Shown here: positions 42,051-43,874 of the stretch, one piece after another
Layout: each line of letters begins with the position of its first letter
Numbering within the stretch: position 1 is the first letter of the stretch
Origin: Escherichia coli
Lineage (GTDB): Bacteria > Pseudomonadota > Gammaproteobacteria > Enterobacterales > Enterobacteriaceae
DNA length: 64,000 nucleotides
Direction: 5' to 3' (one strand)
NCBI RefSeq assembly: GCF_003334785.1
Contig: NZ_QOWV01000001.1
Made by a program: the position numbers and the translations under genes
Notes under the pieces: model-generated
Told to the model about the DNA's origin: nothing
Database searches by the model: none
Seen by the model: only the letters and a program-made list of their open reading frames with translations

Positions 42051-42753
42051 TACGTGGAACAGATTGGCGCTCTTGATTTTCGCCGTTTTATCGCTGCTGG
42101 TGGCGGGTGAATTGCAGGCAGGAGTGGTGGTCGGCGGAACGCGATTTATCTTTCCGGCAGACAGAGAATCGATATCTATTTTACTGACTAATACCAGTCA
42201 GGAATCCTGGCTTATTAACAGTAAAATCAACCGCCCAACGCGTTGGGCCGGGGGGGAAGCGTCGACAGTGCCAGCACCATTACTGGCCGCTCCGCCACTT
42301 ATTCTCCTGAAGCCCGGTACGACAGGCACGTTGCGCTTGCTGAGAACGGAAAGCGACATCTTGCCTGTGGATCGCGAAACGCTATTTGAGTTAAGCATTG
42401 CCAGCGTGCCATCCGGCAAAGTTGAAAATCAGAGCGTAAAAGTGGCGATGCGCTCGGTATTTAAACTGTTCTGGCGACCCGAAGGTTTGCCGGGCGACCC
42501 GCTGGAAGCTTATCAACAATTACGCTGGACACGGAATTCGCAGGGTGTACAACTCACTAACCCAACGCCTTATTACATTAACCTGATTCAGGTGAGTGTA
42601 AATGGTAAAGCGTTAAGTAATGTGGGAGTTGTGCCGCCTAAAAGCCAGCGTCAGACAAGCTGGTGTCAGGCAATCGCACCGTGTCATGTCGCCTGGCGGG
42701 CGATAAATGATTACGGCGGGTTGAGTGCAAAGAAGGAGCAAAATCTGCCCTGA
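42043..42753 (+). CDS. ycbF: second periplasmic fimbrial chaperone-like protein
   Basis: 236-aa product from ATG 42043 with signal peptide; resembles elfD-type chaperones (FKLFWRPEGL motif shared with ElfD FKLFWRPKGL). Confidence 0.8.
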   Translation: MTNTWNRLALLIFAVLSLLVAGELQAGVVVGGTRFIFPADRESISILLTNTSQESWLINSKINRPTRWAGGEASTVPAPLLAAPPLILLKPGTTGTLRLLRTESDILPVDRETLFELSIASVPSGKVENQSVKVAMRSVFKLFWRPEGLPGDPLEAYQQLRWTRNSQGVQLTNPTPYYINLIQVSVNGKALSNVGVVPPKSQRQTSWCQAIAPCHVAWRAINDYGGLSAKKEQNLP

Positions 42754-42761
42754 AACAGGTT

Positions 42762-42777
42762 CGGAAAACGTTTGCGT
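42762..42777 (+). promoter_or_regulatory. candidate PurR operator (PUR box) upstream of pyrD
   Basis: cggaaaacgtttgcgt resembles the PUR-box consensus ACGCAAACGTTTGCGT (right half perfect); pyrD is a known PurR regulon member. Confidence 0.55.
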
Positions 42778-42799
42778 TTTTTTTGCCGCAGGTCAATTC

Positions 42800-42863
42800 C
42801 CTTTTGGTCCGAACTCGCACATAATACGCCCCCGGTTTGCACACCGGGAATCCAGGAGAGTTC
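42800..42863 (+). promoter_or_regulatory. pyrD leader with GC hairpin (cccgg-tttgcaca-ccggg) just 5' of the SD aggagag
   Basis: Inverted repeat read directly; consistent with reported start-site-switching translational control of pyrD. Confidence 0.4.
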
Positions 42864-43874
42864 ATGTACTACCCCTTCGTTCGTAAAGCCCTTTTCCAGC
42901 TCGATCCAGAGCGCGCTCATGAGTTTACTTTTCAGCAATTACGCCGTATTACAGGAACGCCGTTTGAAGCACTGGTGCGGCAGAAAGTGCCTGCGAAACC
43001 TGTTAACTGCATGGGCCTGACGTTTAAAAATCCGCTTGGTCTGGCAGCCGGTCTTGATAAAGACGGGGAGTGCATTGACGCGTTAGGCGCGATGGGATTT
43101 GGATCGATCGAGATCGGTACCGTCACGCCACGTCCACAGCCAGGTAATGACAAGCCGCGTCTCTTTCGTCTGGTAGATGCCGAAGGTTTGATCAACCGTA
43201 TGGGCTTTAATAATCTTGGCGTTGATAACCTCGTAGAGAACGTAAAAAAGGCCCATTATGACGGCGTCCTGGGTATTAACATCGGCAAAAATAAAGATAC
43301 GCCAGTGGAGCAGGGCAAAGATGACTATCTGATTTGTATGGAAAAAATCTATGCCTATGCGGGATATATCGCCATCAATATTTCATCGCCGAATACCCCA
43401 GGATTACGCACGCTGCAATATGGTGAAGCGCTGGATGATCTCTTAACCGCGATTAAAAATAAGCAAAATGATTTGCAAGCGATGCACCATAAATATGTGC
43501 CGATCGCAGTGAAGATCGCGCCGGATCTTTCTGAAGAAGAATTGATCCAGGTTGCCGATAGTTTAGTTCGCCATAATATTGATGGCGTTATTGCAACCAA
43601 TACCACACTCGATCGTTCTCTTGTTCAGGGAATGAAAAATTGCGATCAAACCGGTGGCTTAAGTGGTCGTCCGCTTCAGTTAAAAAGCACCGAAATTATT
43701 CGCCGCTTGTCACTGGAATTAAACGGTCGCTTACCGATCATCGGTGTTGGCGGCATCGACTCGGTTATCGCTGCGCGTGAAAAGATTGCTGCGGGTGCCT
43801 CACTGGTGCAAATTTATTCTGGTTTTATTTTTAAAGGTCCGCCGCTGATTAAAGAAATCGTTACCCATATCTAA
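42864..43874 (+). CDS. pyrD: dihydroorotate dehydrogenase (quinone), class 2
   Basis: 336-aa product from ATG 42864 ([21 protein letters not shown]...). Confidence 0.96.

Follow-up and report, generated by a model that had tools for sequence, protein, structure and literature searches.

The interval from position 42754 to 42863 of the window, by which the whole 64,000-nucleotide stretch of DNA analysed here is meant, is in all probability (about 93%) the promoter and 5' leader of the Escherichia coli gene pyrD, equipped with two separate controls which have both been described already. One of them is an operator (PUR box) for the regulator PurR, and the other a switch between neighbouring transcription start sites, on which the formation of a hairpin at the very 5' end of the transcript depends. 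This dual control by PurR and by start-site-dependent translation had been put forward in an initial annotation made from the letters of the stretch, and it is borne out by the motif under a ChIP-chip peak, by the Rfam family RF02373, by RNA folding, by a map of transcription start sites, and by reviews of the field.

Publications on all three pyrD features, namely PUR box, start-site switch, and leader hairpin, go back to about 1990–1993. With a curated Rfam entry, ChIP-chip data, and start site maps available as well, they are of little value as a discovery. What was established here by computation comprises the sequence elements and their statistical weight, the conservation, and the way in which the hairpin depends on the 5' end; the literature documents in vivo occupancy by PurR, the weak purine repression, switching of the start in response to nucleotides, and the mapping of a start to the G. 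Small additions are a geometry of hairpin and Shine-Dalgarno sequence which is unlike that of pyrC, an architecture which is fixed in 81 species of Enterobacteriaceae, an invariant and unexplained AGGTCAATT block, and a PUR box which is placed in helical-turn steps.

Locus and Elements of the Leader

The stretch is part of the E. coli chromosome. Translation of its open reading frames yielded fimbrial proteins followed by a 336 amino acid protein starting at the ATG at 42864, and the resulting gene order ycbF, pyrD, zapC, and then ycbX is also that of strain MG1655. DNA matching a 1-kb stretch around the leader was present in each of the 5426 complete E. coli genomes, and the annotated features beneath the matches, where given in the RefSeq genomes, were ycbF and pyrD, the latter as quinone-dependent dihydroorotate dehydrogenase. 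The interval is therefore the 110-nt intergenic region between ycbF and pyrD. At least 80% of positions 42300–43300 was covered in only 4064 of the 5426 genomes, and a 116-nt region was found at 95% identity or more in every one of them. In three divergent E. coli examples which were aligned, the sequence from the -10 hexamer through the ATG was identical and all differences lay upstream. In strain VL40 an IS1A element interrupts ycbF at about window position 42570, which leaves two pseudogene fragments of this gene and the pyrD promoter untouched; strain 23CRST021 carries the same IS1 annotation beneath its match.

For comparison beyond E. coli the best 80 loci obtained by scanning genomes with the PyrD protein sequence were used, which come from 80 Enterobacteriaceae species or metagenome-assembled genomes and have 91–99% protein identity. 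Together with the window they give 81 aligned upstream sequences, to which all counts out of 81 refer. The following features were assigned:

42762–42777, no strand: PurR operator (PUR box) CGGAAAACGTTTGCGT, assigned by identity to the ChIP-chip motif, matrix score, and consensus match; centred at -64.5 with respect to G42834
42777–42785, plus strand: T-tract of eight T followed by G, abutting the PUR box (-57 to -49); candidate UP element
42790–42804, plus strand: conserved block AGGTCAATTCCCTTT between the PUR box and the -10 hexamer, holding the best -35-like hexamer
42820–42825, plus strand: -10 hexamer CATAAT; ATAAT invariant in 81/81, located within the promoter sequence printed with the mapped start site
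42831–42834, plus strand: alternative start sites C42831–C42833 (6–8 nt after the -10 hexamer) and G42834 (9 nt after it), assigned by CCCGG invariant in 81/81, the mapped start site, and a review
42831–42848, plus strand: 5'-terminal RNA hairpin with stem 42831–42836/42843–42848 and loop 42837–42842, assigned by the structure line of RF02373, folding, and conservation
42854–42860, plus strand: Shine-Dalgarno sequence AGGAGAG, invariant in 81/81, 4–10 nt upstream of the ATG and in no fold paired with the 5' hairpin
42864–43874, plus strand: pyrD coding sequence for 336 amino acids, quinone-dependent dihydroorotate dehydrogenase, assigned by open reading frame, RefSeq pyrD annotation, and MG1655

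The PurR Operator

The likeness of positions 42762–42777 to a PurR operator, which had been noticed in the initial annotation, turned out to be an identity. The letters at exactly these positions are cggaaaacgtttgcgt, and CGGAAAACGTTTGCGT is letter for letter the motif given under the pyrD peak in a ChIP-chip study of PurR, a peak which extends from 1,003,618 to 1,004,017 and was detected only with adenine added (PMC3159470). The reverse complement ACGCAAACGTTTTCCG differs from ACGCAAACGTTTTCNT by one mismatch, which makes it a match on the minus strand, and a consensus match with at most one mismatch is unique in the 64 kb, with 0.02 expected by chance. Scoring against a PurR motif had been proposed as a check on the operator, an insignificant score counting against it. 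Table 1 of Cho et al. 2011 (PMC3159470) gives 27 PurR motifs besides that of pyrD, and with a log-odds matrix made from these the pyrD box scored 20.7 bits. The training sites scored 12.0–24.7 bits, with the median at 20.0, and none of five million random 16-mers reached the value of the pyrD box. The 16-bp palindrome thus matches the consensus ACGNAAACGTTTGCNT at the level of verified sites, and it is the best site in the window. The runner-up, ACGACCACGATTTCGT at 6320–6335 on the minus strand, scored 14.1 bits, which is above the weakest training site (12.0 bits); it is located inside the 3' end of msbA and is probably a chance match.

A PUR box was present in all of the 81 species with scores of 13.0–24.6 bits. 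Within E. coli, strains R7 and R32_14_1F have another sequence upstream of the PUR box which lacks the end of ycbF, and Escherichia sp. MOD1-EC7003, E. albertii, and E. whittamii resemble them in this part. The PUR box of the strains without the ycbF end is the weaker AAGAAAACGTTTGCTA, with 14.5 bits as compared to about 20.7–20.8 bits. The boundary of this polymorphism of the fimbrial operon adjoins the edge of the operator (window 42734–42778).

Wilson and Turnbough in 1990 are said to have put the repression by PurR at about two-fold. Repression of pyrD by PurR is described as direct and weak, and for pyrC and pyrD together a weak effect is stated, on the scale of the three- to four-fold one at carAB P1 (PMC6245113). 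PurR loaded with hypoxanthine or guanine would bind to 42762–42777, upstream of the core promoter, and transcription would drop a few-fold. From its position at about -64 the repressor might bend the DNA or disturb contacts made at the T-tract next to it.

Promoter Elements

No sigma-70 site was found by a consensus promoter scan of 42600–43000, which is due to the weak -35 region. The best -35-like hexamer, TTCCCT at 42797–42802, agrees with the consensus in three of six positions and is spaced by 17 bp from the -10 hexamer. Directly upstream of this weak -35 lies the block AGGTCAATT (42790–42798), of which GGTCAATT (42791–42798) was invariant in 81/81 species, and the spacer that follows at 42805–42814 varies freely. 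The literature searched offered no explanation and no regulator for this block. Its GGTCAA resembles the right half of the RutR box (consensus TTGACCAnnTGGTCAA), but the left half does not fit, and no link between RutR and pyrD regulation was found in the literature searched.

The T-tract next to the operator is likewise preserved, with positions 42779–42781 and 42783–42785 invariant in all 81 species whichever gene is located upstream. It is retained with a co-directional ycbF as well as with a divergent open reading frame (about 194 amino acids, about 165 nt away), which is the arrangement in most genera. That the tract is kept whatever its upstream neighbour argues for a role in the promoter, such as that of an UP element, and not for a terminator tail. 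Measured from the G start, the centres of the PUR boxes form two clusters, one between -62.5 and -64.5 with 31 species and one between -72.5 and -75.5 with 50. The clusters differ by about one turn of the helix, and in most genera there is an insertion of 10–11 bp between the box and the T-run.

Taken together, the invariant AGGTCAATT block, the conserved T-tract, and the two-cluster position of the PUR box could mean that the promoter receives a further input. A third, undescribed input, in which an activator or RNA polymerase's alpha subunit would occupy a fixed face of the DNA and PurR would compete with it in a phase-dependent manner, is a speculative and rather improbable extension of the two known controls.

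Start Sites and the Leader Hairpin

A first indication of the second control is the match of RF02373 (PyrD leader) to positions 42796–42869 on the plus strand, which covers the model from 1 to 74 of 74 with 97.9 bits (E = 5e-17), well above the gathering threshold of 47 bits, and reaches 3 nt into the coding sequence of pyrD, a class 2 dihydroorotate dehydrogenase gene on the same strand. The consensus structure of the family is a single stem of 6 bp with a loop of 6 nt, and its pairs are those of the window, where the arms CCCGGU (42831–42836) and ACCGGG (42843–42848) enclose the loop UUGCAC. The cccgg/ccggg hairpin which the initial annotation had placed at 42832–42848 is therefore real, with the correction that its 5' arm begins one base earlier, at 42831.

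The 5' arm coincides with the stretch in which transcription starts. Three Cs and the G follow the -10 hexamer at a distance of 6–9 nt, as is found in nucleotide-sensitive start switches, and the spacing ATAAT-N5-CCCGG is fixed in the 81 species, so that the end of ATAAT is always exactly 9 nt before the G start. Control of translation by the choice of the start site in pyrC and pyrD of E. coli and Salmonella is set out in a review (PMC6524683, citing Sorensen et al. 1993). At a high ratio of CTP to GTP both genes start with C, 6-7 nt past the Pribnow box, and the two extra Cs allow a stable structure at the 5' end of the transcript, by which the initiation of translation is inhibited; at a low ratio transcription begins at G, two bases further on (PMC6524683). 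The shift of the start with the CTP/GTP ratio and the difference in translation between the two classes of transcript are thus documented in the literature.

A single start site for pyrD, at position 1,003,961 of NC_000913.2 with 421 reads and a 5' UTR of 30 nt, is listed in Table S1 of Kim et al. 2012 (PMC3415461). It corresponds to G42834 of the window, and the promoter sequence printed with it ends in ...CATAATACGCCCCCG. The cells had been grown in M9 glucose without pyrimidines (PMC3415461). Since pyrimidine-free minimal medium is the condition for which the model predicts G starts, the mapped site agrees with it; the map kept the strongest signal per 10-bp window and is silent on minor C starts (PMC3415461).

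Folding of transcripts with alternative 5' ends, which had been named as a check in the initial annotation, made the dependence of the hairpin on the start site evident. Its free energy was -10.3 kcal/mol for a start at C42831, -7.2 kcal/mol at C42832, and -3.9 kcal/mol at C42833, with a probability of the G34-C45 pair of 1.0, 1.0, and 0.74, respectively. A transcript starting at G42834 adopted a different, marginal fold of -2.3 kcal/mol in which the probability of this pair was 0.28. For all starts at or before 42832 the hairpin had a probability of 1.0, and a stable 5' hairpin was thus confined to the longer, C-started transcripts. The folding energy as such is unexceptional for the base composition (z = -1.09; 29 of 200 shuffled sequences fold at least as well), so that the significance of the hairpin rests on its position, its conservation, and the literature.

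RNA polymerase at the CATAAT promoter would accordingly choose between C (42831–42833) and G42834 by the CTP/GTP ratio. C-started transcripts with the 5' end CCCGG would fold a G+C-rich hairpin of 5-6 bp at their extreme 5' end and be translated poorly, and G-started transcripts, which lack the Cs and cannot hold the stem, would be translated.

Conservation in Enterobacteriaceae

Besides the promoter positions mentioned above, the alignment of 81 sequences is invariant in the PUR-box core G-AAACG-TTGC, most of the T-run, GGTCAATT, ATAAT, CCCGG, both arms of the stem, the spacer bases A42849, A42850, U42851, and C42853, the Shine-Dalgarno sequence, and the ATG. Variation is found in the spacer 42805–42814, in the five bases between the -10 hexamer and CCCGG, and in the loop, where four of the six positions show substitutions or 1-nt deletions across the species. 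The distance from the G start to the ATG is 30 nt in 70 sequences, 29 nt in 10, and 28 nt in one. RF02373 matched all of 20 orthologous loci sampled, with 78–98 bits.

A formal count of pairs in the 81 species yielded no covariation in the stem. As the stem never varies, the comparative data support a constraint on it and neither prove nor disprove an RNA structure. At least 120 homologues were obtained for the PyrD protein; the matches listed were near-identical E. coli PyrD proteins and added nothing on covariation.

How the Hairpin Could Inhibit Translation

A Shine-Dalgarno sequence aggagag just behind the hairpin had been noted in the initial annotation and is confirmed at 42854–42860; five unpaired nucleotides (AAUCC) separate it from the end of the stem, and the ATG follows at 42864. 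Pairing of the Shine-Dalgarno sequence with the 5' arm, which is not a defining property of the pyrD family, was absent in every fold from every start, and the structure of RF02373 leaves the Shine-Dalgarno sequence outside the stem as well. The initial annotation had made its proposal depend on occlusion of this sequence for at least one plausible start. Taken literally, such occlusion does not occur, as the hairpin never pairs with the Shine-Dalgarno sequence; a start-dependent stem is nonetheless present five nucleotides upstream.

Opening of the Shine-Dalgarno sequence alone was calculated to cost 3.4–6.6 kcal/mol, with no trend across the starts. This cost stems from a weak, start-independent predicted pairing: a stem-loop at 42854–42876, in which the Shine-Dalgarno sequence (AGG.AGAG) pairs with codons 2–4 (CU.ACCCCU) and the AUG lies in the loop, was predicted for every start, adds about 3 kcal/mol, and may be a folding artefact. 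A dependence on the start was seen when the region from -20 to +13 was considered as a whole, the opening of which required 13–15 kcal/mol for starts at 42829–42831 and 8.4–9.1 kcal/mol for G42834, a difference of about 5-6 kcal/mol. The 3' arm of the hairpin occupies -21 to -16, counted from the A of the AUG, and hence lies inside the region bound by the ribosome. Structures upstream of the Shine-Dalgarno sequence can alter translation more than 100-fold (PMC3936740).

As the hairpin of pyrD does not touch the Shine-Dalgarno sequence, blocking of the upstream landing region fits better than sequestering of the Shine-Dalgarno sequence itself. Most likely the hairpin keeps the ribosome away by occupying the stretch directly upstream of the Shine-Dalgarno sequence and not by pairing with it. 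Inhibition would come about by loss of the single-stranded landing stretch in this place and by the hairpin reaching into the 5' edge of the footprint of the ribosome. With the Shine-Dalgarno sequence not sequestered by the hairpin, this step draws on the published genetics and on inference.

Alternative Explanations

The same hairpin could be thought to act mainly on the lifetime of the mRNA, by shielding C-started transcripts from decay which depends on the 5' end. In E. coli, 5' stem-loops do stabilise mRNAs, and with starts at C42831 or C42832 the stem is located at the very 5' terminus, not preceded by any single-stranded tail; such a role would also go along with a hairpin which leaves the Shine-Dalgarno sequence unpaired. 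Stabilised C-started transcripts would, however, raise expression at high CTP, which is the opposite of the documented repression by pyrimidines (PMC6524683), and the published model puts the effect at translation, so that an action mainly on mRNA lifetime is very unlikely. Another possibility is that the CCCGG...CCGGG repeat acts as DNA, either as a protein site or as a determinant of start choice or promoter escape, with the RNA hairpin being incidental. Invariant arms without compensatory changes are what a constraint on the DNA would also give, and the 5' arm does coincide with the start sites, but the loop tolerates substitutions and 1-nt deletions with both arms fixed, the 3' arm at +10 to +15 is outside the initiation region, and the literature and Rfam treat the repeat as an RNA element. 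A mere DNA function of the repeat is accordingly given a very small probability.

For the upstream part of the interval it has to be considered that the PUR-box-like palindrome and the T-run might be the terminator of the ycb/elf fimbrial operon, or that the palindrome might be due to chance. The palindrome begins 9 nt past the stop codon of ycbF and is followed by eight T, as would be expected of a terminator. No terminator-like site was called on the plus strand near the leader, however; there were two calls, both on the minus strand, and that at 42850–42829 is the leader palindrome read backwards. In addition the palindrome AAAACGTTTT leaves no loop, no consistent hairpin was found across the 81 species, and the box and the T-run are kept in genera where the upstream gene is a divergent reading frame about 165 nt away, which is the case in most of them. 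ChIP-chip places PurR at the motif (PMC3159470), with a matrix score at the median of true sites, and both the terminator, which was rejected as a candidate, and the chance palindrome are practically negligible. A PurR operator followed by a start-site switch with a leader hairpin is thus the preferred description of the interval.

Comparison with Known Systems

The PurR operators of the purine regulon (consensus ACGNAAACGTTTGCNT) are, like the pyrD box, imperfect palindromes of 16 bp with a central CG, and the matrix score of the pyrD box is at the median of the ChIP sites. Strong repression from a position within the core promoter region is the usual case among pur operators. In contrast to most of them the pyrD box is located upstream of the -35 region and represses weakly. 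In this it resembles the box of carAB P1, which is positioned at -128.5 (PMC6245113).

The leader corresponds over its full length to the Rfam family RF02373, the PyrD leader of E. coli and Salmonella, and is the same element as that ascribed to Sorensen et al. 1993 and Frick et al. 1990 in the account of PMC6524683. As the model starts at 42796, the PUR box, the T-tract, and the GGTCA part of the conserved block fall outside it.

The closest functional relative is the leader of pyrC, which in MG1655 matches RF02372 and for which translational control by CTP/GTP-sensitive start selection is attributed to Wilson et al. 1992 and Liu and Turnbough 1994. Like pyrD, pyrC has a PUR box upstream, a run of Cs followed by G at 7-9 nt past the -10 region (TATCCT-TTGTGT-CCGG in pyrC, CATAAT-ACGCC-CCCGG in pyrD), and a CCGG-based 5' hairpin which forms on the longer transcripts only. 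The two differ in the arrangement of these parts. In pyrC the 3' arm GCCGG is followed without a gap by AG, which places part of a GGAG motif within the stem, whereas the pyrD stem ends 5 nt before AGGAGAG; the loop has 15 nt in pyrC and 6 nt in pyrD; and the PUR box of pyrC ends 1 nt before TATCCT in the -10 region, whereas that of pyrD is centred at -64.5. The two leaders are not alignable and form separate Rfam families, so that pyrC and pyrD work alike with a different geometry.
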